From NCBI GenBank assembly GCA_049968255.1, contig JBMFRB010000005.1:101822-165821 (forward strand): DNA of 64,000 bases, in the 5' to 3' direction. This document shows positions 9,942 to 54,250 of the stretch, piece by piece (position 1 is the first letter of the stretch; every line of letters starts with the position of its first letter). The position numbers and the translations under genes were made by a program. The notes beneath the pieces were generated by a model that saw nothing but the letters and a program-made list of their open reading frames with translations, had not been told where the DNA came from and did not search any database. Source of the DNA: Candidatus Sumerlaeaceae bacterium (GTDB lineage Bacteria; Sumerlaeota; Sumerlaeia; Sumerlaeales; Sumerlaeaceae).

Positions 9942-10757
9942 TTAGCTCACCCCGTCGCGGTCAAGAATGGCCGTCCACCGGCCATGGCGATACATCACGC
10001 GAATGGGAAGGTCGAAAAGCTCGCTGAGCCGCCGTGAGCAAAGCGTCGTGCGGATAGGGCCAGCAGCGAGCACACGTCCTGCACGCAAGAGCAGGGCATG
10101 GGTAAATATTTCTGTTATTTCCTCGACGTGATGTGTGGTTAGCACAAGGGTGGGGGCACTCGGCCTCTGCGAAACAAGCTCGAGTGTGTGCAAAACGAAT
10201 TCGCGACCAGCCAAATCGAGGCCTGCGCAAGGCTCGTCGAGAATCACAATCTCGGGTTTCCGCATGAGTGCCCGAGCAATGAGCAGGCGCTGGCGCTCGC
10301 CGGTGCTCATTGCTCCAAAGGGCTTTTCGAGCAAGTCTTGTGTGTGCGTTTCGACTGCGGTTTGCACGACGTGGCGAAGTTCCGCTGATGTGGGGGGGTC
10401 GAAAAGGTTGAGATGTGCGCGCGCCCCCGTGATAAGAACTTCGGCCCCGACGAGGTCAGGCCGAATCATTCGCATCAGAGGTTCGCTGACAAAAGCAATG
10501 CGGCGGCGCAACTGCGTGAGGTCCACTGCGCCGAAGCGATGACGCAGGACACAAACCTCGCCCTCGGTCGGCCACAGATACCCGCACAGAATGTTCAATA
10601 AGGTCGTCTTGCCTGCACCGTTGGGACCGTAGAGAACCCAATGCTCGCCGCTGCGCACTGTCCACGAAACGCCATCGAGAATCCGGCGATTCTCACGTTC
10701 AAGCGTGATATTGTTCAGCGCGATAACTTCGTCATAGTCTGTCGTTTTTTGCTCCAC
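9942..10757 (-). CDS. ABC transporter ATP-binding protein (ModF/YlmA-like)
   Basis: GPNGAGKT, MSTGERQR, ILDEPCAGLD, THHVEEI. Confidence 0.92.
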   Translation of the reverse strand: MEQKTTDYDEVIALNNITLERENRRILDGVSWTVRSGEHWVLYGPNGAGKTTLLNILCGYLWPTEGEVCVLRHRFGAVDLTQLRRRIAFVSEPLMRMIRPDLVGAEVLITGARAHLNLFDPPTSAELRHVVQTAVETHTQDLLEKPFGAMSTGERQRLLIARALMRKPEIVILDEPCAGLDLAGREFVLHTLELVSQRPSAPTLVLTTHHVEEITEIFTHALLLRAGRVLAAGPIRTTLCSRRLSELFDLPIRVMYRHGRWTAILDRDGVS

Positions 10758-38212: not shown

Positions 38213-41065
38213 TTAGCGCTTTTTCGACGCTTTTTTCGTTGCAGCTTTTTTCGCAGGCGCTGTTTTCGCCACTTTGTTGGCAGCCGACTTCTTCGCCGAC
38301 GCTTTCTTCGAAAAAGACGACGCAGGCTTCGGCGGTGCGCTTTCGATCGCGGCCTGAGCGGCAGCAAGCCGTGCTATCGGCACGCGGAACGGCGAGCAGC
38401 TCACGTAATTCATCCCCACGCGATGGCAGAACTTCACCGATGCCGGATCACCACCATGTTCGCCGCAGATACCAACCTTGAGGTCGGGTCGCGTTTCACG
38501 TCCGCGCTCGATCCCCACTCTAATGAGCTCGCCGATGCCGTCCTGATCAATGGTCTGGAAAGGATCATCCTTGAGGATCTTCTTCTCAAGGTAATCAGGC
38601 AGGAACGAGCCAATGTCGTCGCGGCTGAAGCCAAAGCCCATCTGCGTCAGATCGTTCGTGCCAAACGAGAAGAATTCAGCGACTTGGGCGAGTTTGCCCG
38701 CTTGCAGCGCTGCGCGCGGAATTTCGATCATCGTGCCGTAGAGGAACGGCAGCTTGCGCAGACCGAATTTCTGCATGACCTCTTTGGCCACGCGATCCAC
38801 GATCTCCTTCTGGTGCATGAGCTCCGTCTCGATGCACGTGACCGGGATCATAATTTCTGGCAACGCTTTCTTTCCGGCCTTTATAAGCTCTGCAGCTGCT
38901 TCGAGAATCGCGCGTACCTGCATCTCGGTCACTTCGGGATAAGTGATGCCAAGACGCACGCCACGATGGCCGAGCATGGGGTTGTTCTCGCGCAATGCTT
39001 CGGCCCGCTTCTGCAATTCGGCCATATCGATCCCCAACTCTTTGGCCAGTGTCTGGAGCTTTTCTTCGGAATGTGGCACGAATTCATGCAGTGGGGGATC
39101 GAGCAGACGGATTGTGACCGGCCGGCCATTCATGACTTCGAGAGTCGCCTTCACGTCATTTTTGACGAATGGGAAGAGCTCGTCGAGGGCCTTGCGCCGT
39201 TCGTCGCCGGTTTTGCTCATGATCATCTTGCGCAGCAGGAACAGGGGCTTATCGCTCCCCTCGCCATAGAACATGTGCTCCGTGCGGAAAAGACCGATAC
39301 CTTCGGCGCCGAATTTGATGGCTTGTTCAGCATCCTTGGGAGTGTCGGCATTCGTCCGCACGCGGAGCTGGCGGAACCTATCCGCAAGCTTCATGAGCTC
39401 CTGGAAGGGCTTGTTGTGTTCGAGGTCCACGTCGACAAGAGGTAGTTCACCAAGGTAAACTAACCCTTTCGTGCCGTTGAGCGAAATCCAATCGCCCTCT
39501 TTGACCACAACGCCGCTCTTGGTCTTGAACGACTTAAGATCGTGAGCGATCTCAATATCGCTGCAGCCGACGATGCAGCACTTGCCCCAACCACGCGCCA
39601 CAAGCGCGGCGTGGGAGGTCATGCCGCCTTTGCTGGTGAGGATCGCCTGGGCCTTGTGCATGCCGTCGACGTCCTCGGGCGACGTCTCTTCGCGCACCAG
39701 GATGACCTTTTCGCCTTTCGCGGCCCATTGCACTGCATCCTCGGCGGTGAACACGACACGGCCGCGCGCACCACCAGGACCGGCGGGCAAGCCTTTTGCG
39801 ATCGGCGTCGTTTTGAGTTCCACCTTCGGATCAAGCATGGGCAGGAGAAGCTCGAACAACTGATTCGGCGCCACACGCTGCACAGCGGTCGCATCGTCGA
39901 TCAGTCCCTCTTTGTACATTTCCGTGGCCATGCGGACTGCCGCCACGCCATTGCGCTTACCGACGCGGCACTGCAGGATATAGAGCTTGCCTTTCTCAAT
40001 TGTGAACTCGATGTCCTGCATGTCGCGATAATGCTTCTCGAGCCGATCCTGAATGTCGTAGAGCTCGGCGTAAACTTCGGGCATCAGCTCTTTGAGCGTG
40101 GGCAGGTGCCTACTCTGCTCGTTTTTGGATTCGTCGTTGATCGGAGCAGGGGTGCGAATGCCGGCCACCACGTCCTCACCCTGCGCATTGATGAGGTACT
40201 CGCCGTAGAAAATTTTTTCACCCGTGCCGGGATGCCGCGTGAAGGCTACGCCGGTGGCGCTGTCGTCGCCCATGTTGCCGAAAACCATGGACTGCACATT
40301 GACGGCGGTGCCCCATTCATCGGGGATGCGTTCGATGCGGCGGTACTCAACGGCACGTTTGCCGTTCCAGCTCGCAAACACGGCGCCGATCGCGCCCCAA
40401 AGCTGATCCCATGGATCCTGGGGGAAAGCTTTGCCTAGCACTTCTTTGACCTTCGCCTTGAAGGCTTTGACAAGCTCTTGAAGATCCTCCGCCGTCAGAT
40501 CCGTATCGGAGCTATAGTCCTTCTCCTTTTTCACTTCCTCGAGCATCTCATCGAGGATTTTGCGGATTCCCTTGCCATCCTTAGGCTCTATGCCTGCGGC
40601 CTTCTCCATAACGACGTCGGCATACATCATGATCAGGCGCCGATACGCGTCGTAGGCAAAACGGGGGTTATTTGTTTTCTCGATGAGCCCCTGAATGGTC
40701 TTATCGTTGAGACCGACGTTGAGCACGGTCTCCATCATGCCGGGCATGGACTTGCGCGCGCCCGAGCGCACCGACACGAGCAGTGGATTCGACGGATCGC
40801 CAAACTTCTTTTTGGTCAGTTTTTCGACCTTGGCAAGCGCGGCCTCGACCTGCCCTTTCAGCTCGGGCGGGTATTTGCGCCCATGCTGATAATAGTAGGT
40901 ACAGACTTCTGTGGTGATTGTAAAACCCGGCGGCACTGGCAGCCGCAGGTCGGGATGCCCAGCCATCTCGGCAAGGTTGGCACCTTTGCCGCCGAGAAGC
41001 TCTTTCATTGACTCATTGCCGTCGGCGCGACCGCCGCCGAATGAGTAGACGTACTTCTTTGCCAT
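38213..41065 (-). CDS. ppdK: Pyruvate, phosphate dikinase
   Basis: GGKGANLAEM, SVRSGA, GGMTSHAA, GLFRTEHMF, SFGTNDLTQ, GICGEHGG; AGGAGG RBS. Confidence 0.98.
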   Translation of the reverse strand: MAKKYVYSFGGGRADGNESMKELLGGKGANLAEMAGHPDLRLPVPPGFTITTEVCTYYYQHGRKYPPELKGQVEAALAKVEKLTKKKFGDPSNPLLVSVRSGARKSMPGMMETVLNVGLNDKTIQGLIEKTNNPRFAYDAYRRLIMMYADVVMEKAAGIEPKDGKGIRKILDEMLEEVKKEKDYSSDTDLTAEDLQELVKAFKAKVKEVLGKAFPQDPWDQLWGAIGAVFASWNGKRAVEYRRIERIPDEWGTAVNVQSMVFGNMGDDSATGVAFTRHPGTGEKIFYGEYLINAQGEDVVAGIRTPAPINDESKNEQSRHLPTLKELMPEVYAELYDIQDRLEKHYRDMQDIEFTIEKGKLYILQCRVGKRNGVAAVRMATEMYKEGLIDDATAVQRVAPNQLFELLLPMLDPKVELKTTPIAKGLPAGPGGARGRVVFTAEDAVQWAAKGEKVILVREETSPEDVDGMHKAQAILTSKGGMTSHAALVARGWGKCCIVGCSDIEIAHDLKSFKTKSGVVVKEGDWISLNGTKGLVYLGELPLVDVDLEHNKPFQELMKLADRFRQLRVRTNADTPKDAEQAIKFGAEGIGLFRTEHMFYGEGSDKPLFLLRKMIMSKTGDERRKALDELFPFVKNDVKATLEVMNGRPVTIRLLDPPLHEFVPHSEEKLQTLAKELGIDMAELQKRAEALRENNPMLGHRGVRLGITYPEVTEMQVRAILEAAAELIKAGKKALPEIMIPVTCIETELMHQKEIVDRVAKEVMQKFGLRKLPFLYGTMIEIPRAALQAGKLAQVAEFFSFGTNDLTQMGFGFSRDDIGSFLPDYLEKKILKDDPFQTIDQDGIGELIRVGIERGRETRPDLKVGICGEHGGDPASVKFCHRVGMNYVSCSPFRVPIARLAAAQAAIESAPPKPASSFSKKASAKKSAANKVAKTAPAKKAATKKASKKR

Positions 41066-42060: not shown

Positions 42061-42975
42061 GTGACGTGCGACCTCACTACAAGCGTCGGTCCTTTGACGC
42101 TCAAAAATCCGGTGACCGTCGCATCCGGCACTTTTGGTTACGGACTTGAATTCGCCGAGTTTTATGATCCGGTGCTGCTGGGTGGCATCTTTCTCAAGGG
42201 GCTGACGCGCGAACCACGTGCCGGTAACGAACTACCCCGCCTCGTCGAAACGCCCAGCGGCCTTATCAACTCGATTGGACTGCAGAACATTGGCATCGAG
42301 GAATTCTGCACCCACAAGTGGAGAGAGCTGGAAGGCATTAACACACTCATCGGAGTGAACATCAGCGGGCGCTCGCCAGAGGAATATGCCGAGCTTACGG
42401 AGCGCGCCTCGCAGGTGCCCATCGTCGGAGCTATCGAAGTAAACGTCTCGTGCCCAAATGTCAAAGAAGGCGGCGTGGAATTCGGCCGCTCCGCCGAGCA
42501 TATTCGCACGATCACGCGTGCCTGCGTGGAGGCCAGCCGCGTGCCGGTTATTGTCAAGCTTTCGCCCAACGTGACCGACCTCGTGCCGCTCGCGGCGGCA
42601 GCCATGGAGTCGGGGGCGACCGCCGTGAGCCTCGTCAACACCTTTTTAGCGATGGCCATTGATGCGCAAACGCGCCGCCCAGTACTACGCAATATCTTCG
42701 GCGGGTTGAGCGGCCCCGCGATCAAGCCCATCGCGCTGCGGATGGTGTGGCAGGTGTGGCGCGAGCTGCGCTGCCCCATCATCGGCATGGGGGGCATCAT
42801 GAGCGGCACCGACGCCGTTGAATTCCTGCTAGCCGGTGCAAGCGCTGTGAGCGTGGGTACGGCCAACTTTGTCAATCCGACAGCGGGACGCGATATTTTG
42901 CGCGAGCTTGAGGACTATTGCGAACGCCACGGCGTCCGCCGTGTGCGCGAGCTTGTCGGCGCTGCTCACGCCTGA
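42061..42975 (+). CDS. pyrD: Dihydroorotate dehydrogenase (family 1B catalytic subunit)
   Basis: ASGTFG, INSIGLQN, NVSCPNV, KLSPNVTD, GGLSGPAIKP, GMGGI. Confidence 0.96.
   Translation: MTCDLTTSVGPLTLKNPVTVASGTFGYGLEFAEFYDPVLLGGIFLKGLTREPRAGNELPRLVETPSGLINSIGLQNIGIEEFCTHKWRELEGINTLIGVNISGRSPEEYAELTERASQVPIVGAIEVNVSCPNVKEGGVEFGRSAEHIRTITRACVEASRVPVIVKLSPNVTDLVPLAAAAMESGATAVSLVNTFLAMAIDAQTRRPVLRNIFGGLSGPAIKPIALRMVWQVWRELRCPIIGMGGIMSGTDAVEFLLAGASAVSVGTANFVNPTAGRDILRELEDYCERHGVRRVRELVGAAHA
42883..42969 (+). repeat. Direct repeat copy 1 (pyrD 3' end)
   Basis: Aligns without gaps to 47053-47139, 68/87 nt by hand count. Confidence 0.92.
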
Positions 42976-42979
42976 AGCA

Positions 42980-43080
42980 GGAAAGACGCGCCAGAGAAGA
43001 GGCCTTCTCGTGCACTCAACGGCAGGTGTGGCCACGACTTGTTCGGGAAAGACCCGCCAGAGAAGCGACGTTCTCCTGCA
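42980..43080 (+). repeat. Two 35-nt hairpin-containing direct repeats separated by 31 nt
   Basis: GGAAAGACGCGCCAGAGAAGAGGCCTTCTCGTGCA (42980-43014) vs GGAAAGACCCGCCAGAGAAGCGACGTTCTCCTGCA (43046-43080), 30/35 identical. Confidence 0.85.
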
Positions 43081-43529
43081 ACCCTCTTCCGGCCGCGCCG
43101 CAACGCTAAACCGCCCCACTTTCGCGACATGTCGTTCCCTAGTGGCCGTTCGTTCCAAAGACTAACAAGGGCAATGGGCGCAGCCGACGCGAACTCTGCC
43201 TCACAAAGTGCATGGAAGGTCAGTCATTCGTACTCAGCGCTAACCTCCCGCCATGATACGGCGCTCAGAAGCGTGAGCGCTGCGACCGAGAGGAATTTGT
43301 CCTCACAAGCCACAAATCCACGCCGCAGGAATGCTCCAGGCATCGCGCTGCTACCCTCCCGCTGCCCGAGCCAAGTCCAAAAACAGACAGCGGCGGCTGA
43401 AGGCCAATCCTTGAGCCGCTGCACACAAAAAACTTTCAAAAAAACATTACACCGCGAATAAGTGTTTTTTTTTTTCAATATTCCACAATGGCACATGCCA
43501 ACATATTTTTCTGCAAAAGGAGAAGAACG

Positions 43530-43745
43530 ATGAATCGCTTCACGCTTTTGCCACTCGTGGCTCTCATTTCTCTTGCTCCGGTGCTCGGCTGGTCAGACAC
43601 TCCGCAGTGCTCATGGTCAGCCGACAGAAGGCAGTGCCTCGTAGAGCTTGCAACATGCGAGCCTCCTCTGGCGAGCTGCGGAGGGCAGGGTTTCTGGCAG
43701 AGTGGCCCATGGGCGGGCGACGCAATATGTCACTGCCACGAGTAG
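43530..43745 (+). CDS. Small secreted six-cysteine peptide (71 aa precursor)
   Basis: AAGGAG RBS, signal peptide MNRFTLLPLVALISLAPVLGWS, mature region C-x8-C-x6-C-x6-C-x16-C-x-C. Confidence 0.75.
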   Translation: MNRFTLLPLVALISLAPVLGWSDTPQCSWSADRRQCLVELATCEPPLASCGGQGFWQSGPWAGDAICHCHE

Positions 43746-43755
43746 AGAGTTGAGC

Positions 43756-44724
43756 ATGGAAACAAGGCATCACCTCTTCGTTTTTACATGGGGTCTAGTG
43801 TTTCTATGGTTGGGCGCCGAGGGCATCGGCGCCCAGTCCACCTTGCCGAAAGGCCCTGTTCACCTTGTCCCCGAGCAACTGTCGCTCTGGAAAAATCACA
43901 ATGTTTATTGCCGAAGCCGGTGCGTTGTTGATGATATCCAAGCCAAAACCCAGCATCATTACACTGTCACATCATACCACTTTGGCACTCATGACCTCAT
44001 TATTCATGCAAAAAGCAACCATGCCGAAATCGTTGGATATTGGAATTTTGCACTTAGTACCGCCGACTACTGGATGAGGGGATGCGACCCCTATATCGTT
44101 TTCTTCCCTAAAAGCGGTTTCGAACTCCGTTTCGGTTCACTTGATCCATATTTCAATATATTTGAGAGCGCACGCTGCATTTTCTATGGCTGTGGATTCG
44201 AACACCTCAGCGTGCAATCGGAATTGAATCTTACGACTGTAACACTTTCAGTGTACAGCTCAGACCTCCTAGCCACAAGTACAATATATCATGTCTTCCG
44301 AGACAACCTTGTTGTAGCAAGATTCAAAATAGGAGAAATGGCTGCGCGATATGATAAGAACGGTCGTCTTAATCGCACTGCGGGCCCTCCTTCCTATACC
44401 TTTTACGAAACCTTCGACGACTACCAAACTTCCCATCCATTCTCATTTCCCACTCGGGTAATTTTTCAAGATCAGCCAAGCAATCCCAAGTACTACAAGT
44501 TTGTTCACCAAATTCTTGAAGCAGGACCAATAGACGTCAGTCTGAAGCCGCTCCTTTCTGCTCTTACTAAAAGTCTCCCGCACCGTATTTGTGCCCGTCC
44601 CCACCCCGTACCTATCAGTAGGCTTTTCCGCTCTCGCACATTGCTAGCACAAGCAACTTTCATTCTCATCATTCTGGTCTTAAGTGGGATTTTCTTCCTC
44701 CGAAAGGGAAAGAACCGCTCATAG
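43756..44724 (+). CDS. Hypothetical exported protein with C-terminal TM anchor
   Basis: Signal peptide METRHHLFVFTWGLVFLWLGAEGIGA; beta-rich body; TM then RKGKNRS. Confidence 0.7.
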   Translation: METRHHLFVFTWGLVFLWLGAEGIGAQSTLPKGPVHLVPEQLSLWKNHNVYCRSRCVVDDIQAKTQHHYTVTSYHFGTHDLIIHAKSNHAEIVGYWNFALSTADYWMRGCDPYIVFFPKSGFELRFGSLDPYFNIFESARCIFYGCGFEHLSVQSELNLTTVTLSVYSSDLLATSTIYHVFRDNLVVARFKIGEMAARYDKNGRLNRTAGPPSYTFYETFDDYQTSHPFSFPTRVIFQDQPSNPKYYKFVHQILEAGPIDVSLKPLLSALTKSLPHRICARPHPVPISRLFRSRTLLAQATFILIILVLSGIFFLRKGKNRS

Positions 44725-44787
44725 GGTTGTTTCGCTATTCGGAGTCTATATTTAAGTAAACGTCGGATCTGACAAGAGTGATTTGCT

Positions 44788-47151
44788 ATGAGCAGGCCTA
44801 GCATACATCATTTCGGCGAAACGCGCTTTCCCATTGCCCCTTTATTTGTCACCTTGTGTTCTCTCTTGGTTTGGGCGTTACCCTCACTTTCACTCAGTGG
44901 TTTTTTTGGTAGGTTCTTTTTCTATATGGTACATGGGGGTGCACCTATCGCCTCTGAGCTTGGTGTTCGCCCGTGGATTCTGCTGGTATTTGGTACAATC
45001 GTAGGAATACTGGCTTTCTCCTTGTCTCGAAGGATTGTATGGGTGGGATTTCTGCTGCTAAGTGCTTTCAGCGTCGCACAAGCATCTGTGCTAGACTTTC
45101 CGTGGCCCAAACGTGAGGAAGGAGTTATCTTTTTTGTCGCGCATACGGCTATGTGGCTTTTGCTGCCTTGCATTGTTTGGGCTTACGCAAATACACCTCG
45201 TGTGCGACACTTAATCCGCATAAGCTTTATTCCTCTTGGCGTAATCAATTATTTAACATTCGTTTTATGGTTGTCAAAGTCTAGTGTAGGAATAACTCTT
45301 GCCCCCTACGCTCCCTATGTGATGGACAGCTCAGGCATAAATGAAAATGCTTCGCGCTTCAGCGGAACCCTAAACTCGCCGAATGCGTTGGCTCTACTTG
45401 CCATAGTTACGTGGCCGGCGTTTTTGTCACCGATCCGTGCAGAGTGGTGCCGGTTCTATGCTTCGCTGTTACGAATCATTTCATTGGCCCTTATCTATGT
45501 TATGGTGTTTTTCACATATTCTCGCGCTGCGTATTTGGGCTTGATTGTGCAATTCTGTTTTCTCGCGCCGATAGTTTTTGCCCAAAGCCAAGGCTCGTCA
45601 AAACGAGCTGCAGATCATGCGTTCCTCGCCCTAGGCCTTGCTTGCGTTATAGCTGTTTTAGTGAATTCTGTTCGTCAGCGGGTGATTTCTGCGTTTAGCG
45701 GAGGGACTGATGCATCGATTCTTAATCGTTTGGAAGTTTATTCCGTGGCGTTACGACTTTTATGGGAGCGCCCATTTTGCGGCTGGGGCCCGGGCTCGTT
45801 TGCGCATTTATACAATGTGTTCTATCGCATCCCTGGGGTGAATTATGCTTTCCACGATGTTCACAGTGCATTCTTTTCACGTTTTCTCGACATTGGTTTT
45901 GCGGGTATTTGCCTCGAAGTGATACTACTTCTGGGGCTGTCACCTTTTAAAAATGTCAAGCGGGTTCCTTTGTGGGTTCGGCTGAGTTTCGTCGGAGCAA
46001 TAGTGCCCTCGATTGCAGAAAACGCTTCCCGAGTCACGTTTGCAGTAGACATAGCATGGATATGGATAGCTGCCGTCGTCGTCATATACACGCGAGGAGC
46101 CAACGCTCGGAGTAATAAATGTGATAGCGACAGAACAAGAAGTTTATTATTTACCTGTGCATGTTCCGGACTGTGGCTCATGAATTTCGTGGTTGAGCCC
46201 AAAAACGCGTGCGACCGACTAAACGCTGAATTGAACCGGCTTTGTTCATCACTTGTCGGCAAGACGACCGCCTCTGTGTATATCTCTGATGTCGGAACTG
46301 TTTGGCGCTCGAAGGAGGAGAGAGAGTTTCCAAGTGTTATAGCCTCTATGCTGCTCTTGTCCGAAGCCTCCGTTGCGAAGCCGGAAACGATGATAGACCT
46401 GGTCGATTTCCGCCCTGTACCAGCCATGGAGCGAAACGTTCCCATAATCCTGAAAGCGCCGGAGGCCGCGGCCTATCTGTTGTACGCCTCTGACCCGCTC
46501 GCTGCCCAACGATTAGTTGATCTTTTGCCAGCAGACCTTTTGAGAGAGGTGGCTCGACGAGATTTTAGGTGCGAACCGTTTCATGCGGTGGCTGCTGAGA
46601 ATTTTTGTCCGACGTGCGCTCTGTACGAAATCCCGCGACAACGGGAATTCGTTGGTCGTGGTCTACGCACCTACGCAACCACCGCCACTATCTCGCAGGT
46701 TGCGAATGCTTTTGCCAAAATTCTGGAAACGACGACCTCAGCTGTGGTTCCAATCCGGACTGCGCTGGCTGACTCCCGTGATGAGTGGGGGATGCTTCGT
46801 CATTTAGGGGGCGTAGGTTCTGTCTGGGGCCTCAGTTTTTACTCTGGGCCAAAACGCGAGGAAATAGTGGCCATTCCGCTAACTGGCGGTGGACAGCTTG
46901 TTCTGGCGATGGAGTATGAAGCGAGGCAGAGCATTCCGGCACGTGTCGATTCGGCTGCGAATAAAGTTTTTGCACTTACCGCCTGGCGATGTTGGTGTGT
47001 GCTCCAGGCCGAAGGAGAAGAAACGTTTGTGTCCCTGGCCAAACGCAACCCTGCGGGGTGCGATATCCTGCGCGAGCTTCAGGACTACTGTACGCGCCAC
47101 GGCGTGCGCCATGTGCACGAACTTATCGGTGCCGCACAGCCGCCATGGTAG
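44788..47151 (+). CDS. O-antigen ligase/O-OTase (Wzy_C) family protein fused to degenerate class A beta-lactamase-like domain; C-terminus derived from pyrD
   Basis: RFSGTLNSPNALA, FTYSRAAYLG, RLEVY...ERPFCGWGPGSF, HDVHS; many TMs; soluble C-terminal domain. Confidence 0.8.
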   Translation: MSRPSIHHFGETRFPIAPLFVTLCSLLVWALPSLSLSGFFGRFFFYMVHGGAPIASELGVRPWILLVFGTIVGILAFSLSRRIVWVGFLLLSAFSVAQASVLDFPWPKREEGVIFFVAHTAMWLLLPCIVWAYANTPRVRHLIRISFIPLGVINYLTFVLWLSKSSVGITLAPYAPYVMDSSGINENASRFSGTLNSPNALALLAIVTWPAFLSPIRAEWCRFYASLLRIISLALIYVMVFFTYSRAAYLGLIVQFCFLAPIVFAQSQGSSKRAADHAFLALGLACVIAVLVNSVRQRVISAFSGGTDASILNRLEVYSVALRLLWERPFCGWGPGSFAHLYNVFYRIPGVNYAFHDVHSAFFSRFLDIGFAGICLEVILLLGLSPFKNVKRVPLWVRLSFVGAIVPSIAENASRVTFAVDIAWIWIAAVVVIYTRGANARSNKCDSDRTRSLLFTCACSGLWLMNFVVEPKNACDRLNAELNRLCSSLVGKTTASVYISDVGTVWRSKEEREFPSVIASMLLLSEASVAKPETMIDLVDFRPVPAMERNVPIILKAPEAAAYLLYASDPLAAQRLVDLLPADLLREVARRDFRCEPFHAVAAENFCPTCALYEIPRQREFVGRGLRTYATTATISQVANAFAKILETTTSAVVPIRTALADSRDEWGMLRHLGGVGSVWGLSFYSGPKREEIVAIPLTGGGQLVLAMEYEARQSIPARVDSAANKVFALTAWRCWCVLQAEGEETFVSLAKRNPAGCDILRELQDYCTRHGVRHVHELIGAAQPPW
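47053..47139 (+). repeat. Direct repeat copy 2 (displaced pyrD 3' fragment)
   Basis: Encodes AGCDILRELQDYCTRHGVRHVHELIGAAQ vs PyrD AGRDILRELEDYCERHGVRRVRELVGAAH. Confidence 0.92.
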
Positions 47152-47507
47152 CCCACCGCAAAGCGACCCATTACATCAATGGCTCGGGCCGATCGTAGCC
47201 CGCGCCAAAGTGTGGGATCGGAAGTCCTCCCTATGATTAGCAAGGCCCCCGTTCGGATATGCAGCGATGCTGCAGCGCACGACTGTCGGAAGCTTTGTTG
47301 ATGAGCTCACCCAACTGGCAACTGTCCCCTCCACGGCCGCCGGCGGTTCATGCAAGCTCCCCGTCGTCGCCGGCTCACTTGCGCACTCCGCTAACTCACT
47401 CGCGTAGAAATCCTAACGACCGCCAAGTGACGCCAAAATGATCACGCGCACCAGAAAGTAGAATTCTTCTGTGGTCCCAGAGAGGCTTTGATTGTACTGC
47501 TGGCAGA

Positions 47508-48482
47508 TCAGTGTTCTGTGGTGATGACTTCGAGCGGCGGTGGGCCCACATAGAGATTCACGCGCAGCTCGATGGGGTCGCGATAGCGCCGAACCGTAAA
47601 GATCCCGATGTCCTTCGGGCCAGTGTTGATATTTTCGCCAATACTCACCCGGTACGTATCACCCTCGTGGGCTGGAATGGCAAAGCGTGCGGCGACGGGC
47701 TCGTCCTCCGCGCCGGAGGGCAACGTTAGCGACTCCCTTACGACTGCCTCAAGCGGCGTGAGTGTCACTGGCACATTGATCATCCGGCGAAAGGGCAATT
47801 CATACACGGACACTTCCGCACGCACGACAGGGACGACGGGAAGAAAAAGTGCGCTGGTGGTTTTCGCGTCGCCCACACGCAGGCGAAACCGCCGCTCCGG
47901 GGGATTGCTTGGCCATAAGCGCACCTCCTCGCCAGATAGGGGCTGGTAGTTGGCGAAAATCTCAAGCTCGACTTCGTCAAGTTTTCCCTTGGCTGGAGCG
48001 AGCAAAATGCGCGTGAACCCTCCGCCATTGGTCACAAAGGGACCGCCAACTGTGCTGCCACCATAGCCGTAGATGGCAAAGTCGCTCACGGGCTGCAAAT
48101 TGACGCGATCGAACACGAAGACGCATAAACTGGGAGAAGACGCGGAGGCCGGAGGGAGAGCACTCTTCTCGAACGTAGAAATAATATCCTGCGGAGAGCT
48201 GGTGAGTTCCGGGAGCCATCGCGATCTCGCGGGCTGCCGCGCCACGGTACCCGAAGCGAGGGCGGCTGTCGTGGTCATGGTCGGAGCGCTCTGAGTGTAA
48301 AGCGAGGCTGAAGTGGATGGCGGCTCCACTCGCTTAGCGGCTGGCGATGTCACCGCTGTGGCCGCATCAACATAGACGGCGCGCTGCAGAGTGCTTGTCG
48401 TCAGAGCCGCAGCATGGGGAGCGAAGAACGTTAGTGCGCCCACCACACTCAGCACAATGAACGAATTAATGATCTGCTGCAT
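47508..48482 (-). CDS. Secreted hypothetical protein with S/T/A/P-rich linker and beta-sandwich-like C-terminal region
   Basis: Signal peptide ...VVGALTFFAPHAAA; low-complexity linker; start uncertain (48482 or 48518). Confidence 0.65.
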   Translation of the reverse strand: MQQIINSFIVLSVVGALTFFAPHAAALTTSTLQRAVYVDAATAVTSPAAKRVEPPSTSASLYTQSAPTMTTTAALASGTVARQPARSRWLPELTSSPQDIISTFEKSALPPASASSPSLCVFVFDRVNLQPVSDFAIYGYGGSTVGGPFVTNGGGFTRILLAPAKGKLDEVELEIFANYQPLSGEEVRLWPSNPPERRFRLRVGDAKTTSALFLPVVPVVRAEVSVYELPFRRMINVPVTLTPLEAVVRESLTLPSGAEDEPVAARFAIPAHEGDTYRVSIGENINTGPKDIGIFTVRRYRDPIELRVNLYVGPPPLEVITTEH

Positions 48483-49133
48483 GTTCGAGTCCTCCCATTG
48501 GACGGTCTTCAGCGACACAATATCGATAATTTCTTATCTTTCTATTATAATGTTAAGCCGTGCAAACTATTATGTTATTCGTTTCAAGCCTCTCAGGTTA
48601 TCGTTTTTGCTCAATGATACATCGATCTTAATGCCGCCCCTTTGTGGACAAGGCTCGATGCCCACATCTCTTCACATTTTTTCCGTAATCGAGGTCGCAA
48701 ACTCCGAGTGCATCCGTGCGATAAATTGTCATCGCTGTATTGCCCGGATGCCTGGCCTTTTGCGTCGAGTGGGCTTTGCGGCTTCTGGGGTGCGCCACGA
48801 GAAACCGCCGTTTTGCAGACACTGAATTGCATTGCCCGACTGTGGCCTACTTGGCAAAGCTCAGAAACAACTTTACCAGCAACGCAAGGCTTGGTCTGGC
48901 TGCGGGCCTTGCAGGGGCTTATCCAAGACTACGACTCCGTTTGTCCTAAGCTTAGGATATCGCCTAGCTTTCGCCACCTCGGGAAAGTTTGTGGCCGCGA
49001 ATACCACAGACGCGAGAAGAATGGTAGGGCTGCTTTTTTCTTCATACATGTGGAACTCAGCTAGGCAAACACAATGTGTCGTCATCCTGCGCAACGCCGT
49101 ATTGTTTTGTAGCCTAACTTCTCGTCAACTGGC

Positions 49134-49173
49134 AAAAAAATCAGGGAGGAGACCCACTCGGATCTCCTCCCCT
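49134..49173 (-). terminator. Rho-independent terminator
   Basis: Minus strand GGGAGGAGA-loop-TCTCCTCCC then TGATTTTTTT, downstream of the CDS ending at 49245. Confidence 0.8.
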
Positions 49174-49244
49174 TTCTCGCCTCAGTTTGGCAAGAGGTTA
49201 GCCATCGGCGCTCGCCTCATCGCCAAACCTAGAAACGCAGGCGT

Positions 49245-52200
49245 TTAGTAAGCAGCCCATTCGGTCACACCCGCTGGGAAAGGCTCGGCAACCGCAATGT
49301 CCGAAGCCCCACTGTAAATGACGGTGGCAACAGCGCCCTTTGAGCTCAGACGCAGCACACCGAAGCTCGGGTGCTCCGGATTGCTGATGGACTGCACCAG
49401 CTGGTGCAGGTTATATGTCGGCGCGTTTGGTGTGGCTAGCGTCACCCACGACGTGGGGTTCGTTGGATCACGCGCCACGAGCACTGATTTCTGGCCAAGT
49501 GGGTCAACACCAGCGAATCCGCCCACGTCGGCCACAAGAGTCCAGTCGCCGCTCGGACCCACATCGATACCATCGCCGAGAGCCAGGTGATACGCTCCAG
49601 CCGGATCAACCTTGTTCACGTTGTCCATCGAGTTTGTGTTTCCATTCGCGGCAAGGTTGAATGGCCATCCGCCCGGATCTCCGGGGGCGAAGCTCACCGC
49701 AATCGTCCCACCAGCACCGAGTGCTGCGGAAGTGCTCACCGTCAACATTCTACGCAGCCCCGACGCGGGGTCCACCAGCGGGAAGTCCACGCTGGCAAGA
49801 GCCGCCGTCCCGCGCCAACGCTTGAAGGTGCCTTGAACGAGGGCGATTTCACCGCTTGGGTAGGAGAGAGTTCCCACGTTTGAAGTGTCCATTCCAAGAG
49901 TGAGAGTTCCAGCTCCGCCATTCATCACGAGACGCCCTCTCTTCAGGCTCAGCACCTTGGTGCAGCGGTAATCGCCTGGCAGATTCACACTTCCGTTTGT
50001 CGCGCAGACAATTCCGCCAACATCACCCGGCACGAGAGCACCCGCCGCCTGTCCACTGACATCGCCACAGAATCCCCAGACGCCAACACCCTGGAGCGGT
50101 ACATTACTAAAGGCACCACTGAGGGTCACGCCAGGGAAGTCGCTGGACTGCGGCGGCATGTTGGCAAAGCCAGAGGGGCTATCGGTGGCAAATCCACCGT
50201 TTGCACCCCACGTCACACTGCCGAGACCATTGACCACTCCGCCGCTGCGTGGTGCGAGAGTTCCCTTGATCGTGAGTGTGTTGTTGCAGGTCAGTGTCCC
50301 GAAAATGTGGGCGATTTTACCCGTAGCATCTCCGCCAAGCGTGACCGGATCGTTGCAGGTAAGAGTGACGCCGGAAGGCACCACGAGGTCGCCCGAGATC
50401 GTGATATTCGCGGGCCAAGTCATCGAGTTTGAGATGATGAGTGGTGTAGCGTTGAAGTCACTAGCGGTCGTGTTGTTATTGACCACACTGCCCGCGAGGA
50501 TGACTGGTCCTGTCATCGACGGCTTAAAGGTGGCTGTTGCCCCTATTGTCAGGGTATTCGCGATGGTAGCGGGTAGACCGCCCGACGCGGTATAATTCGC
50601 GCCGTTGAGAATAAGATTACCGAAGCTACGGCCCGAGAATGGGATCGCTGTAGATGTTGCCAAAAATTCCACGGTCGATCCCGGATCAAAAGACCATGCA
50701 CCATAGCTCACCGGAATGTATCCGCTTGGCAAGGCCCCTGGGAAAGGCGTGGCGACACTGCGGCTCGTGTTGAACTGGAGATATCCACCATTTTCGACTT
50801 TGCCCGTCGCGGTGGGATCGAAGTAGTAGATGCTAGTTGAGCCGCCCAGCGTGCCAGGCGCAAATTCGAAACGGCCACCGTTGCGCACATTTACGTCCGG
50901 CGTGGCGGGGTTCAAGTCGCCACCAATGTTGAGAATTTCATTGATGGTCGTCGTCTCGATGCGAAGAGTGATCACGTTGCTTGCGCTTAGAGGATCACCG
51001 ATCGTCAGGGTGCGGCAATTTGCTTCGGCAGTGGAAGAGCTAATCTTAACCGTGTAGGCACTTGTGACATTGGTGTGGTCCAGCACGACATCATCGAGTG
51101 GCGTCGGCACACCGGCGGGTGACCAGTTCCCCGGATCGAACCAGTCGCTGGCATTTAGGCCAGCGCCCAACCACTGCTTCACCGTCCCGGTCGCTGGCGG
51201 GGTGATGGCCCACGAACCAATATAGTTGTTGGTGACCAAGGCAAAGATGTTCGTGCCATCAGTAGCAAAGTCGCCTGTCCCATTTGCGTTAGCATTAGGG
51301 GTTGCGAGTGCGGGACCAAAATCCACCAACTGACCCTGAGCAGGTCCGCTCGTGACATCGGTCACCGAGAAACGCGCGTATGCGTTCGTTGATGCTTTGG
51401 GCAGGCCATGGTGAATGGCGCAATAGTATGTTTTGCCGCCGATCGCCAGTGGCACACCGTGCAGAGCACTCGAGTGCACTCCTGTGATCATGGACTGGAA
51501 CGCCCCAGAATTCGTGTAAACCGCGAGAGCCCCATTCGTTTGATGCCAAATCGCACCCGTCACGGGATCCACATATTCGCCGCGCAACGCGTTTCCGAAA
51601 CCATAGTCCGAAGGCAGCCCCGTCAACGTGATCTCTGAGACGGAAGCCACATTCGTGTTGCTCGTCGGTGGAACTTGGGGGTCTGTGTAGGCGAACTTGT
51701 AGACGGAGTTGAGGATGTTGGCTCGCGCCACACCAACATAGAACTCGACATTAGATCCGCTGACAAGCCGCGCCCAGAATGTGTCACCCACACGCTGCGA
51801 GTAAGCAACGAAGGCTTGAGGGAGCGTTGGGCCCACTGGCGTTGCCTCCGCAGTAGCTGCGTCCGCAGCGCGGTTTGCATAGATAACCTCCGGAGCCCCG
51901 AGGGTATCTTCGCTCGCGCCGGCGGCACCAAACCACCGATAAATCTTGAAAGTTTCGGTCTTGCTGTTGATGGAGAGATTGCACGCATAAACAGCGTAGC
52001 CTGCTGCTCCAAAGTCCACAACCCGAACTTTCACTAGAGGCCGTGTGCCACCTGTAACACCCGTGATATTCATATTACCCACTGTGGCGCCGTCCGCGGC
52101 CTTGAGGACCACAATCCCTGGCGCGCTGGTTGATGAACGCACGACAAGCAAGTGGCCAGTACTGGGGTTGTAGGCCAACCCACGCGTCTCGTTGTCATTT

Positions 52201-52316
52201 TGTATGGGCGCGTTGGGAGCGTCAATGCGCCAGTTCTGCGTTAGCGCGCCAAAAGCGCTCAGCGTACCCGCGAGTGTGAGCCATGCCACTAAGCATGGCA
52301 GTATTCGGTGTCTCAT
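49245..52316 (-). CDS. Large secreted protein: DUF4623-like N-terminal region plus beta-helix/adhesin-like region
   Basis: AAGGAGG RBS, signal peptide; RGLAYN..FKIYRW..RVGD; DWFDPGNWSPAGVP motif; G/T/N-rich beta repeats. Confidence 0.75.
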   Translation of the reverse strand: MRHRILPCLVAWLTLAGTLSAFGALTQNWRIDAPNAPIQNDNETRGLAYNPSTGHLLVVRSSTSAPGIVVLKAADGATVGNMNITGVTGGTRPLVKVRVVDFGAAGYAVYACNLSINSKTETFKIYRWFGAAGASEDTLGAPEVIYANRAADAATAEATPVGPTLPQAFVAYSQRVGDTFWARLVSGSNVEFYVGVARANILNSVYKFAYTDPQVPPTSNTNVASVSEITLTGLPSDYGFGNALRGEYVDPVTGAIWHQTNGALAVYTNSGAFQSMITGVHSSALHGVPLAIGGKTYYCAIHHGLPKASTNAYARFSVTDVTSGPAQGQLVDFGPALATPNANANGTGDFATDGTNIFALVTNNYIGSWAITPPATGTVKQWLGAGLNASDWFDPGNWSPAGVPTPLDDVVLDHTNVTSAYTVKISSSTAEANCRTLTIGDPLSASNVITLRIETTTINEILNIGGDLNPATPDVNVRNGGRFEFAPGTLGGSTSIYYFDPTATGKVENGGYLQFNTSRSVATPFPGALPSGYIPVSYGAWSFDPGSTVEFLATSTAIPFSGRSFGNLILNGANYTASGGLPATIANTLTIGATATFKPSMTGPVILAGSVVNNNTTASDFNATPLIISNSMTWPANITISGDLVVPSGVTLTCNDPVTLGGDATGKIAHIFGTLTCNNTLTIKGTLAPRSGGVVNGLGSVTWGANGGFATDSPSGFANMPPQSSDFPGVTLSGAFSNVPLQGVGVWGFCGDVSGQAAGALVPGDVGGIVCATNGSVNLPGDYRCTKVLSLKRGRLVMNGGAGTLTLGMDTSNVGTLSYPSGEIALVQGTFKRWRGTAALASVDFPLVDPASGLRRMLTVSTSAALGAGGTIAVSFAPGDPGGWPFNLAANGNTNSMDNVNKVDPAGAYHLALGDGIDVGPSGDWTLVADVGGFAGVDPLGQKSVLVARDPTNPTSWVTLATPNAPTYNLHQLVQSISNPEHPSFGVLRLSSKGAVATVIYSGASDIAVAEPFPAGVTEWAAY

Positions 52317-52633
52317 GAGTAAACCCTCCTTGTGTCTCTGATTTTGTGGGAAGTGAAGGTTTTCGTGGTTCTTCTCCTCCACTCACCATGTTTTTTTGCC
52401 AAGCTTTAGTTATGGTTGTCAAGAGACTTCTGCAAAAAAAAACAACAAAAGTGGACCATTTGGTCCGATTTGTCGGACCACGCAGCTGTGCCCAGCATTA
52501 TTGAAGAGTGCATTTCTGGCAGCTGAGAGCAGGACCTTATCTGCCACAGCCACAGCAGCGCTGCGAGCCTTCTTTCATGGAGGGGTTCAGGCGAACACGG
52601 AGCAGCGCTAAGTTGCTGCGAGGGCCCATTGCT

Positions 52634-54250
52634 CTATGAGGCGCGTGGGGGCTGATTTGATTTTCGTGCAGCTTTGATGCGGTACATTTTTTCGTCGGCT
52701 AGGGCGATGAGGTCCATGGGCTCGGCAAAGGGTTCATTGCTGAACGCGATGCCAATGCTTACGCCCACAGAGACCTCGACGTCACCAATGCGAAGTGGCT
52801 GGCGCACAACCTCCTCAAGCCGGTGCGCAAGGTCGTAGACGTGTTGGGGGCTTTCTACGTCTTCCACCAAGACTATAAATTCGTCGCCCCCGATACGCGC
52901 GACAACATCGCTGGGCCGGACAGATGCCGCAAGGCGCGCAGCCATTTGCGCAAGGCAGTCGTCGCCTGTGGTGTGACCATAGTGATCGTTGACGTGTTTG
53001 AAATTATCGAGGTCGAGAAACAAAATAGCAAACTGCTGCTCGGGGTGGCGGCGCACACGCGCCACGGCCCGTTGGAACAGCTCGAGAAAATGGGCTCTGT
53101 TGGGCAACTGGGTAAGTGGATCGTGGTAAGCGCCATGGCGCAATTGCTCCTCGGCGACTTTGCGCCGCGTGATATCGGTCATGCTGCCGGCCATGCGAAT
53201 AGGCTGGCGACGGTCATCGACAATGGCGACTCCGCGGATGTGCATCCAGCGCCACTCGCCACGGCGAGTGACCATGCGAATTTCGACATCGAGCAGACGA
53301 CTTCTCCCTTCGAGATGGTCGCGGATAGCCTGCTGAAAGGCTTCCCGATCTTCGCTGTGAATTCGGGTCAACCATTCGGCTGGCGTTGGACCAACTTCGT
53401 GGTCCTCGTAGCCGAGCAGCCATTTCCACCGCGGAGAATAGAAGATCCTGTTTTGCCTCAAATCCCAATCCCAGATGCCGTCGTTGGCCCCGGTGAGCGC
53501 TAGGCTGAAGCGCTCCTCGCTCTCGCGGAGAGCTTCAGCCATCTTGGTCCGATCCTCGAGCAGTTCCGTAAGCGCGCGGCGCCAACGCTTGAGCCGCAAC
53601 ACCAAGCCTACCCACGTCATTGAAGAGATCAGCAATACACCAAACCAGGACAACAGCGCGGTCCCGTAAGCTGAGCTCAATCTGATCCTGAGGGAATGCA
53701 GGTGTGGGGCGTTTTCGTCGCTCAGGAGTGAAAGCAGCGAGCGCAAGTGGGATCTTTCGAGCATGTAAGCTGATGTCTGGAGGATCTCTATTGCCGAGGT
53801 TGTCTTGCCTTCCGATGCTAGCTGGATAGCCGCCACTTCGTAGCGACTCACGACAAGAGAAGCCGAGGAAACCTGCTCAGCGAGGCGGCAGAGCTTTTCA
53901 TTGCCGAGTTTAACAAGCGATTCGACCAAGGCGTCGAACTCAGCGACGTAATTCGCGCGTTGCGTAAGATAATGGTCCCCCTGAGCCTGCACATACGCCA
54001 AAGTCGTGGTGCCAATGTTCTCGTCGGCTACGAGCAACCGCTGATGTGCGTCACAAAGCAGTGATCGAAGTTTCTCGTACTCTTGGCGAACACGCACCGC
54101 ATCGAAAATCGTAAAGACGCCCAGTATGATAAGCGCGATTGTCAGTAGAATAGCAAAAACAACGCTAGTCAGGCGCCACTCATAGTCGCGCAGGACTTTC
54201 CCGTATGACCTGGCAACTGGGCTTTTCTCTGCAGTGTCCAGTTTGCTCAC
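52634..54250 (-). CDS. Membrane diguanylate cyclase (periplasmic helical sensor, PAS, GGDEF)
   Basis: Two TMs, GANDGIWDWD PAS, HDPLTQLPNR, DLDNFKHVND, RIGGDEF with RxxD (RPSD). Confidence 0.94.
   Translation of the reverse strand: MSKLDTAEKSPVARSYGKVLRDYEWRLTSVVFAILLTIALIILGVFTIFDAVRVRQEYEKLRSLLCDAHQRLLVADENIGTTTLAYVQAQGDHYLTQRANYVAEFDALVESLVKLGNEKLCRLAEQVSSASLVVSRYEVAAIQLASEGKTTSAIEILQTSAYMLERSHLRSLLSLLSDENAPHLHSLRIRLSSAYGTALLSWFGVLLISSMTWVGLVLRLKRWRRALTELLEDRTKMAEALRESEERFSLALTGANDGIWDWDLRQNRIFYSPRWKWLLGYEDHEVGPTPAEWLTRIHSEDREAFQQAIRDHLEGRSRLLDVEIRMVTRRGEWRWMHIRGVAIVDDRRQPIRMAGSMTDITRRKVAEEQLRHGAYHDPLTQLPNRAHFLELFQRAVARVRRHPEQQFAILFLDLDNFKHVNDHYGHTTGDDCLAQMAARLAASVRPSDVVARIGGDEFIVLVEDVESPQHVYDLAHRLEEVVRQPLRIGDVEVSVGVSIGIAFSNEPFAEPMDLIALADEKMYRIKAARKSNQPPRAS

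Follow-up and report, generated by a model that had tools for sequence, protein, structure and literature searches.

The window analysed here, a stretch of 64,000 nucleotides from a Sumerlaeota bacterium (the source genome), contains two 3' ends of pyrD, and the second is read as the C-terminus of a cell-surface sugar ligase. This raises the question of how one locus came to hold two ends of the same housekeeping gene, and how one of them was joined to a ligase. A first-pass annotation had proposed that an element integrated in pyrD and supplied a replacement 3' end, and that a later deletion removed its integrase side together with the ligase stop codon. All genomes compared below are MAGs.

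Two pyrD ends and a fused ligase

The pyrD gene (42061-42975, + strand) encodes a dihydroorotate dehydrogenase of 304 aa and is intact; the protein scores 255 bits against PF01180 (residues 5-285) and can be aligned with its relatives over its whole length. Near its 3' end lies copy 1 of the repeat (42883-42969), which aligns without gaps to copy 2 (47053-47139) at 68 of 87 nt and 22 of 29 aa, exactly as first described. A recount over the 29 codons gave 12 identical, 10 synonymous and 7 non-synonymous, in agreement with the earlier figure of 10 synonymous changes among 17 differing codons. Across 127,828 placements of the 87-mer, counting either strand of the window, the runner-up scored only 43/87 (mean 22.5, sd 4.4), so the match between the copies is far above chance. 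The same pair was recovered by a repeat finder within the window, and copy 2 was recovered by a whole-genome protein search at E=4.2e-8. The longest identical run common to the two copies is 11 nt. A recent tandem duplication was considered and rejected, since identity between the copies is 78% and the sequences that follow them are unrelated.

Both ends have the marks of coding sequence. The piece that closes the ligase (T3, 47063-47151, + strand) consists of 26 matching codons, three extra codons and a stop. It is 78.2% identical at the nucleotide level to the upstream pyrD end (T1, 42786-42975, + strand, which includes copy 1), with pS 0.52 and pN 0.12. For comparison, the pyrD bodies of the source genome and of G002, a congeneric Candidatus Sumerlaeota MAG that was compared over the 64-kb window, are 75.2% identical, with pS 0.73 and pN 0.084. 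These values indicate that both tails evolved as working pyrD, as the first-pass annotation had suggested.

The ligase ORF (44788-47151, + strand, 787 aa) belongs to the Wzy_C family, its domain (PF04932) being found at residues 232-374 with 54.8 bits (gathering cut-off 31.7); the search of NCBIfam gave only a sub-threshold match to IctB (50.5 vs 366 bits). Residues 1-758 are native ligase, and the remainder is the pyrD tail, which is indeed read in the pyrD frame. The G002 ligase (773 aa) is identical through residue 758 and then continues for 15 further codons to its own stop, beyond which a decayed second ligase copy follows. The proposed loss of the ligase stop was thus borne out: compared with the otherwise 100% identical G002 gene, the fused ORF is missing the final 15 codons and the stop, and a pyrD-like tail was found in none of the five ligase homologues examined. 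Conservation among these homologues stops about 25 residues short of the junction, and the tails beyond that point vary.

The junction itself could be narrowed down. Positions 47053-47062 (+ strand), with which copy 2 opens, are 100% identical to the G002 ligase, whose homology ends at 47062, and 8 of the 10 are identical to pyrD copy 1. These nucleotides are therefore native ligase sequence as well and constitute a junction microhomology, located 47 nt before the ligase stop. The pyrD-derived piece proper begins somewhere between 47053 and 47063. In the window, the codon at 47059-47061 is TGC for Cys, with the base of the ligase type, whereas the database member P0121 has an Arg codon of the pyrD type there. 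The two known versions of the fused ligase differ in this codon alone, and its variable base lies inside the microhomology. Three more proteins in the databases, encoded on contigs from JGI and NCBI, have the fused C-terminus as well.

The tract shared with a second species

Comparison with G002 revealed a sharp switch of identity inside pyrD, at 42785/42786. In the 186 nt to the left (42600-42785), the source genome and G002 show 51 differences (72.6% identity). From 42786 to 47062, they differ by one 1-nt indel (43465) and one SNP (44311), in addition to one scaffold N-gap in G002. This unstranded tract of 4,277 bp (42786-47062) is thus 99.95% identical, while elsewhere in the window the identity to G002 is 68-81%; the GC content of the tract is 44-48%, against 56-61% in the flanks. 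On the left, the tract begins 97 nt before the repeat; on the right, it ends at the junction between ligase and pyrD tail. The repeat that had been used to delimit the islet (42883-47139) is real, but the relevant unit is the exchanged tract.

The tract comprises the last 190 nt of pyrD, ORF85, ORF358 and the ligase minus its final 15 codons. The pyrD gene is accordingly a mosaic relative to G002: all 31 amino acid differences fall in residues 2-242 and none in residues 243-304. Two 48-nt direct repeats with 77% identity (42967-43014 and 43033-43080, + strand), noticed through a repeat search and reading of the sequence, begin at the last two pyrD codons plus the stop, and each contains a short hairpin. 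ORF85 (43488-43745, + strand) encodes a small, Cys-rich hypothetical protein with a signal-peptide-like start, of which a weak, 29%-identical remnant is present in the second ligase unit of G002. ORF358 (43648-44724, + strand; likely start ATG 43756) has a hydrophobic C-terminal segment. Neither ORF matched Pfam or NCBIfam, and an atlas search with ORF358 returned only unnamed clusters at 0.93-0.94, while matches at 0.85 lead to TP_0789-like proteins.

The best reading of these sequences is that the tract moved very recently between two Sumerlaeota species. The two species involved are hot-spring bacteria. Since the tracts are 99.95% identical and the G002 ligase is intact, the fused junction is very young under any model. 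A scan of genome contigs for the ligase matched only the record corresponding to G002, a protein search found only the ligase's own cluster, and for the tail or the downstream DNA no matches beyond the copies already described were obtained, in 2 of 13 family genomes (the source genome and G002).

The direction of the transfer is less clear. P0002 and P0127 have the same pyrD body as G002, yet show 8 differences in residues 248-294, so that the pyrD tail of the G002 MAG appears, on this comparison, to be itself imported. If so, the transfer may have run in either direction. In two species, the left edge falls within one and the same stretch of 20 nt in pyrD (codons 242-248), and it may represent the crossover of G002 rather than that of the source genome. 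A crossover hot spot in the longest identical pyrD run was also considered and rejected, as such runs do not exceed 17 nt in the sequences compared and are not centred on the edge.

The position of the second pyrD end was examined through gene order in relatives. Downstream of T3 follows an intergenic stretch (47152-47507, unstranded) without detectable similarity to G002 or to the islet-free genome L055, and then three genes on the - strand: ORF336 (47508-48518), which encodes a secreted-looking protein; ORF1045 (49245-52382), which encodes a large protein and lies downstream of ORF336 in G002 and L055 as well; and a gene for a PAS-GGDEF protein (52634-54250). In L055 the order is PPDK-ORF214-pyrD-ORF336-ORF1045-GGDEF, with the ORF336 homologue directly after pyrD, and in G006 pyrD directly abuts the GGDEF gene. 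It follows that copy 2 stands where a pyrD end belongs. An empty site, as an insertion implies, is seen in L055 and G006 as far as gene order is concerned; the intergenic sequences fail to align, and no empty site was found within the species, nor was a pre-event allele of the source lineage found among the genomes and sequences searched.

Evidence on the junctions also comes from Logan contigs. One contig of run X1 covers 47037-47250 with no differences, and another covers 42543-42879; the junction contig has only 26 nt to the left of the junction, which is under the 31-nt bridging rule, and X1 is possibly the source sample. In run X3, one contig joins the pyrD body of the source genome to the tract (42605-42845) with no differences, and another carries an intact ligase end of the G002 type; this pair would suit an intermediate whose ligase was still whole, and thus a deletion at a later time. 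Run X2 has the G002-type left junction within one contig, and run X5 has islet pieces that are 94-100% identical, together with a flank piece that is 93% identical; the X5 pieces hint that the islet may be older in the source lineage. None of the Logan contigs joins across the islet or has an empty-site form, and the parts that X2, X3 and X5 leave uncovered carry no weight.

Origin of the second pyrD end

The explanation that we favour, though with no better than an even chance of being correct, is an inter-species recombination anchored in pyrD, combined with an illegitimate microhomology join to the displaced resident tail. The 3' region of pyrD would have served as the homologous anchor for the incoming DNA, the other end of which would have had no homologous partner in the source genome. 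That end may then have been joined illegitimately, at the 10-nt microhomology, to the resident pyrD tail (47063-47151), which would have kept its ancestral place upstream of ORF336. With a one-in-three chance of a frame match, the resident tail would supply the last 29 residues of the ligase. Such an outcome is what homology-facilitated illegitimate recombination (HFIR) predicts, and an integrase would be unnecessary. The first part of this scheme, a homologous crossover at one end of the tract, is matched by the rise from 72.6% to 99.95% identity inside pyrD. The second is matched by the microhomology at 47053-47062, with 8 of its 10 nt identical to pyrD, where the usual HFIR joint has 3-10 bp of microhomology according to the account in PMC3240628.

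On this explanation, the incoming DNA brought a replacement pyrD 3' end, the one now in use, as the first-pass annotation held, and copy 2 is what remains of the former pyrD tail, fused in frame to a truncated ligase, again as it held; what falls away is the site-specific element with its integrase. Copy 2 would be the resident's own tail. As to the route of entry, which we infer, homologues of ComEC (PF03772) and DprA (PF02481) are present in the genome; the same families occur in 10 of 14 and 11 of 14 control genomes, respectively, so they would be permissive for DNA uptake at most. The join may have been made within the import event, a single step being only slightly favoured over insertion followed by deletion.

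This leads to the first alternative, in which there were two steps and no dedicated element: a longer island entered pyrD earlier by recombination and displaced the resident tail, and a recent microhomology-mediated deletion then took away the end of the ligase together with whatever followed it, perhaps a second ligase unit like that of G002, and ~100 nt from the start of the displaced pyrD piece. It is the earlier order of events without the integrase. We regard it as unlikely but worth serious consideration. In G002, about 4 kb of decayed island can indeed follow the ligase, X3 holds both the left junction of the source genome and an intact ligase end, and X5 has diverged islet pieces beside its 93%-identical flank piece. 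However, the X3 contigs may stem from two organisms, one extra event is needed, and no carrier of a longer displaced fragment was found; in G002 itself, a second pyrD tail was absent within 18 kb (tblastn and blastn-short). In the G002 pseudogene, a ligase alignment extends weakly into the tail region, which was dismissed as noise. The four residues unique to copy 2 against 14 relatives, among them a Gln for an otherwise invariant His, are compatible with some drift after displacement, but the excess of unique changes is small (an estimated ~5 vs 1, which is not significant).

The identity of the native tail bears on the next alternative. Residues 243-304 of pyrD are 87.1% identical to the tail of the G002-like populations (P0002/P0127), and the body is 87.2% identical. 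Copy 2 is the outlier: it shares only 19-20 of 29 residues with the G002-like tail, and its nearest tail is T1 (22 of 29). When it was asked by protein comparison which copy is closer to vertical pyrD, copy 1 matched the native tail expected for the source genome no worse than copy 2 did. These comparisons could mean that copy 1 is native and copy 2 the newcomer, or that the displacement of copy 2 is older and was followed by drift. In the former case, the event would be the mirror image of the one that we favour: with the islet already resident, DNA of an islet-free relative (a pyrD tail, intergenic DNA and the end of ORF336) came in by homology on the right and by an illegitimate join inside the ligase on the left, and the ligase end and the DNA downstream of it were deleted, as an incomplete 'cure' of the island. 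The GC3 of T1 (67.7%) is nearer to that of the source-genome body (73.6%) than to that of the G002 body (59.9%), and G002 was demonstrably a recipient of the tract. Nevertheless, with homology on both sides, an ordinary double crossover deleting the whole islet would be expected instead of an illegitimate join. A foreign right flank was tested for and rejected: in all five genes (ORF336, ORF1045, GGDEF, PPDK and ORF214), the source genome and G002 are sisters relative to L055, and no sign of foreign DNA is present to the right of copy 2, where the end of ORF336 is identical to G002 at 51 of 60 positions. This mirror course of events is considered improbable.

A site-specific integrative element at the pyrD 3' end, whose integrase side was later deleted, is more doubtful still. 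The duplicated 3' end of the target gene and the foreign GC content speak for such an element, as does the occurrence of the same tract in two species with left edges in the same 20-nt interval; this common edge, however, requires only the single crossover of G002. The postulated integrase was not recovered: recombinase and transposase Pfam families are absent from the three islet ORFs and from a set of 27 ORFs, 19 of which come from the G002 island beyond the intact ligase. None of these 19 ORFs (at least 60 aa each) beyond the G002 ligase stop had any Pfam match. An identical attL/attR core is absent at the island edges, where the copies are 78% identical with no common run longer than the 11 nt given above. 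The repeat begins 97 nt downstream of the left edge, and G002 lacks a displaced tail. Searches of phages, plasmids and viral contigs found no copy elsewhere. No tRNA was found, the only Rfam match was to an miRNA, at chance level and not within the islet, and promoter and terminator counts were at the level of shuffled sequence. A Campbell-type circle crossover as the sole event was rejected on reasoning from the tract edge, because the second copy would then begin at the crossover and measure at least 190 nt, instead of beginning at the equivalent of 42883.

An assembly or binning artefact, i.e., a contig made chimeric from co-occurring populations, is hardly credible: the MAGs do come from communities holding both forms, and the record matching G002 has a coverage of 4.35 and a scaffold gap inside the islet, but the source sequences share at most ~10 nt at the right junction, which we reason is too short for a jump in a de Bruijn graph, separately assembled Logan contigs contain the junction k-mers, the X2 left junction lies in a single contig, and proteins encoded on three or more other contigs, which derive from two sources, have the fused tail, in one case with another codon at the junction.

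Related exchanges and meaning for the family

Some genomic islands integrate at the 3' terminus of a tRNA or protein gene, for which they bring a substitute end. The present locus resembles them in the duplicated 3' end of the target, the gene kept intact by the incoming copy and the foreign composition, but it lacks an integrase, an identical att core and a displaced end in the second carrier. In enterobacteria, gnd hitch-hikes with exchanged O-antigen clusters through crossovers inside this neighbouring housekeeping gene. There too a surface-glycan locus is exchanged by recombination and the housekeeping neighbour becomes a mosaic; however, both flanks are homologous, and neither a duplicated gene end nor a chimera results.

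The closest parallel is HFIR, which PMC3240628 describes as experimentally demonstrated in Streptococcus pneumoniae, Acinetobacter baylyi and Pseudomonas stutzeri. In that process, homology serves to integrate the foreign DNA at one end, while its other end is attached by an illegitimate microhomology join, and foreign genes come to lie beside the anchor. The present case differs in that the process is deduced from genome comparison in an uncultivated phylum, with an anchor that is only ~75% identical overall, and in that the joint lies inside the anchor gene's own tail, which gives a partial duplication and an in-frame chimera. HFIR was also proposed, with no integrase found by the account in PMC5361080, for the T6SS effector-immunity modules of Vibrio cholerae and for the orphan 3' ends of Rhs/CDI systems. 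As described in that account, the upstream anchor is likewise conserved, and a new module enters while the old 3' part is pushed downstream as an orphan; the anchor there belongs to the variable system, and the orphans stay separate genes. Here, by contrast, a housekeeping gene provides the anchor, and the incoming gene has become fused to the orphan piece.

Taken together, the locus is a clean natural example of an already known process, and neither a new kind of element nor a new mechanism. A more speculative suggestion, which we hold to be improbable, is that the event was caught near the act, the two junction versions being segregants of one heteroduplex, and that the pyrD 3' end is a standing docking site. 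If the heteroduplex reading were true, the joint would stem from imperfectly matched annealed strands, and both versions would be alive in the hot-spring population.

For annotators, the locus holds a warning, as the last 29 residues of the ligase are pyrD-derived and uninformative on its function. It also indicates that one illegitimate joint can yield a chimeric protein in the same stroke. Its main value is as a well-delimited case, from an uncultivated phylum, in which recombination anchored in a housekeeping gene carries a surface-glycan islet over a species boundary, a boundary made visible by the contrast between flanking DNA of ~75% identity and a tract of 99.95%. The interval from pyrD to the GGDEF gene is a variable surface-gene region in this family, and, if the docking-site reading is true, Sumerlaeota species would trade surface-glycan islets there without mobile-element machinery.

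The repeated pyrD tail and the exchanged tract

Segments 42883-42969 (copy 1) and 47053-47139 (copy 2) align without gaps (68/87 nt; 22/29 amino acids), and the second-best 87-mer among the 127,828 placements scored in the window reached only 43/87. Copy 1 is the end of pyrD (42061-42975; PF01180, 255 bits). Copy 2 is read in the pyrD frame as the terminus of a 787-aa ORF (44788-47151) with a Wzy_C O-antigen-ligase domain at residues 232-374. The repeat and its reading frame stand as described in the first-pass annotation, as does the tally of the 29 codons (12 identical, 10 synonymous, 7 non-synonymous). Copy 2 and T1, the pyrD 3' end containing copy 1, share 78.2% nt identity (pS 0.52, pN 0.12), near the divergence between the pyrD bodies of this genome and a congeneric MAG, G002 (75.2%; pS 0.73, pN 0.084). 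This indicates that each tail evolved as part of a working pyrD, as had been proposed, and that the two did so in separate lineages.

The host genome of the window amounts to 3.1 Mb in 31 contigs, and every genome compared is a MAG. G002 is collinear over the entire window at 68-81% nt identity. A search for exchanged tracts between the two, covering the 64-kb window, revealed a 4,277-bp tract (42786-47062) that is 99.95% identical, the only departures being an indel of one nucleotide (43465), a single SNP (44311) and a scaffold gap of Ns on the G002 side. The 186 nt adjoining it on the left (42600-42785) contain 51 differences. The left edge is within pyrD, where it falls at codon 242 and so 97 nt upstream of copy 1; the right edge coincides exactly with the ligase/copy-2 junction. 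The two pyrD proteins differ at 31 positions in residues 2-242 and at none in 243-304. The record matching G002 has a low coverage (4.35) and is scaffolded within the islet, the DNA between both tails; its 98-N gap between ORF358 and the ligase (10165-10264 of locus L034), with ends duplicated over ~100 nt, is an assembly feature and not biology.

Besides the ligase, the islet holds a small Cys-rich ORF (ORF85, 43488-43745) and ORF358 (43648-44724), neither with a match in Pfam or NCBIfam; in the atlas, ORF358 matches unnamed clusters only. The GC content is 44-48% across 43750-46250 versus 56-61% outside. No tRNA, Rfam family, recombinase or transposase was found in the islet. A 48-nt direct repeat, 77% identical (42967-43014 and 43033-43080), starts at the last two pyrD codons and stop, with a short hairpin in each copy; possible explanations are the duplication of a terminator and a trace left by some former event at this position.

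Gene order and pyrD tails in relatives

The gene order of a relative's metagenome contig, L055 (pyrD 82-83% identical), is PPDK-ORF214-pyrD-ORF336-ORF1045-GGDEF without the islet, and in the complete genome G006 the GGDEF gene directly abuts pyrD. Copy 2, 357 nt upstream of the ORF336 stop, therefore occupies the expected place of the pyrD end. The suggested empty site is seen in L055 and G006 at the level of gene order; the intergenic DNA does not align, and no such site was found within this species. Gene content between pyrD and the PAS-GGDEF gene convergent to it evidently varies: G006 has no gene there, L055 two unknown secreted-looking ones, this genome five ORFs (42976-52633) and G002 more. 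ORF1045 (49245-52382, minus strand; 1,045 aa) has a signal-peptide-like start, is 65-76% identical in G002 and L055, and gave no match in Pfam or NCBIfam. The pyruvate phosphate dikinase (38213-41065, minus strand) ends in ~40 residues rich in Lys and Ala, a basic C-terminal tail resembling histone H1.

Up to residue 758 the G002 ligase is identical to the one here; 15 further codons lead to its own stop (773 aa). Four remoter full-length homologues in the family (25-29% identity) have variable tails soon after a conserved Trp/Cys-rich motif; a pyrD-like tail occurs in none of the five examined. Beyond the G002 ligase, ~4 kb precede the ORF336 and ORF1045 homologues. They contain a weak ORF85-like remnant and, after it, a second ligase copy that has decayed, with many stops and frameshifts (L034 3875-5588; G002:C15:12874-14587), which makes the G002 island a tandem of two diverged units. 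No second pyrD tail was found in the 18 kb of G002 examined.

Two database proteins, P0002 and P0127, have the same pyrD body as G002 (P0128) but another version of the last 57 residues, with 8 differences in residues 248-294. This indicates that the tail of the G002 MAG was itself imported, with G002 as a recipient; on these sequences, its species too has a mosaic pyrD 3' end. Compared with the G002-native type, T1 (residues 243-304) shows 87.1% identity and the body 87.2%. The tail closest to copy 2 is T1 (22/29, versus 19-20/29 for the G002-native type). Five positions distinguish those two tails; copy 2 has the T1 residue at three of them and the G002-native residue at none. It has four unique residues, including Gln where His is invariant in 14 relatives. 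By these comparisons T1 and copy 2 derive from a pair of related lineages, both on the side of the split that leads to this genome, and either could be its native tail.

Origin of the fused ligase

As the tracts are 99.95% identical and the G002 ligase is intact, both must descend from a tract whose ligase was still intact; whatever the model, ligase and tail were therefore joined very recently. At the joint, 10 nt of native ligase sequence are 8/10 identical to pyrD; microhomology of such size is reported for the joints of homology-facilitated illegitimate recombination (HFIR; PMC3240628).

The reading we favour, with about even confidence, is that DNA of a related lineage recombined homologously within pyrD while its other end became attached to the resident pyrD tail through an illegitimate join. 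The islet would thereby have been inserted and the working pyrD end replaced, and the old tail would extend the truncated ligase, its reading frame matching by chance. Homologues of ComEC and DprA are present in this genome; being common in control genomes, they are only permissive.

A deletion following the same insertion is a less likely version. It is hinted at by Logan contigs of hot-spring metagenomes, in which the junction was checked: run X3 has the left junction of this genome (42605-42845, 0 differences) and a contig with an intact G002-type ligase end, and X5 has islet pieces 94-100% identical together with a 93% identical flank piece. The residues peculiar to copy 2 also speak for it, although these data do not tell it apart from the one-step version. 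The mirror event, with copy 2 as the import, is improbable, as no foreign DNA was found to its right: all five flanking genes pair this genome with G002 and leave L055 outside. Still more improbable is a site-specific element that has since lost its integrase, as neither an integrase nor an identical core was found. The integrase side that the first-pass annotation supposed to have been deleted was not seen in G002, where none of the 19 ORFs (each at least 60 aa) beyond the intact ligase matches Pfam.

An assembly artefact is scarcely credible, since at most ~10 nt are common to both source sequences at the junction, which makes a graph-assembly jump implausible. Run X1, maybe the source sample, has this genome's flanks with 0 differences, and its contigs cross the left edge (42543-42879) and the right junction (47037-47250), but the latter has only 26 nt left of the junction, below the 31-nt bridging rule. 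A contig of X2 joins the G002 body to the tract, and no islet-skipping contig occurs among the Logan contigs. Independently of these runs, the fused C-terminus was found in database proteins P0121 (JGI contig), P0122 and P0124 (NCBI contigs). The single difference between P0121, which is from another assembly, and the window in 741 aa is the junction codon (47059-47061), Arg (pyrD type) versus Cys (ligase-type base); this codon of the fused ligase is thus polymorphic.

Parallels with known systems

The hitch-hiking of gnd with O-antigen loci is a parallel to this pattern, the overall working of which resembles HFIR. It lacks two defining features of a site-specific island, an integrase and an identical core. 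It also works like the displacement model proposed for the effector modules of the Vibrio cholerae T6SS and for Rhs orphan ends, in which a module coming in is anchored by a conserved upstream segment and the former 3' part is displaced downstream (PMC5361080). The process is already known and the instance new; a small peculiarity is that the incoming gene has taken up the orphan end.
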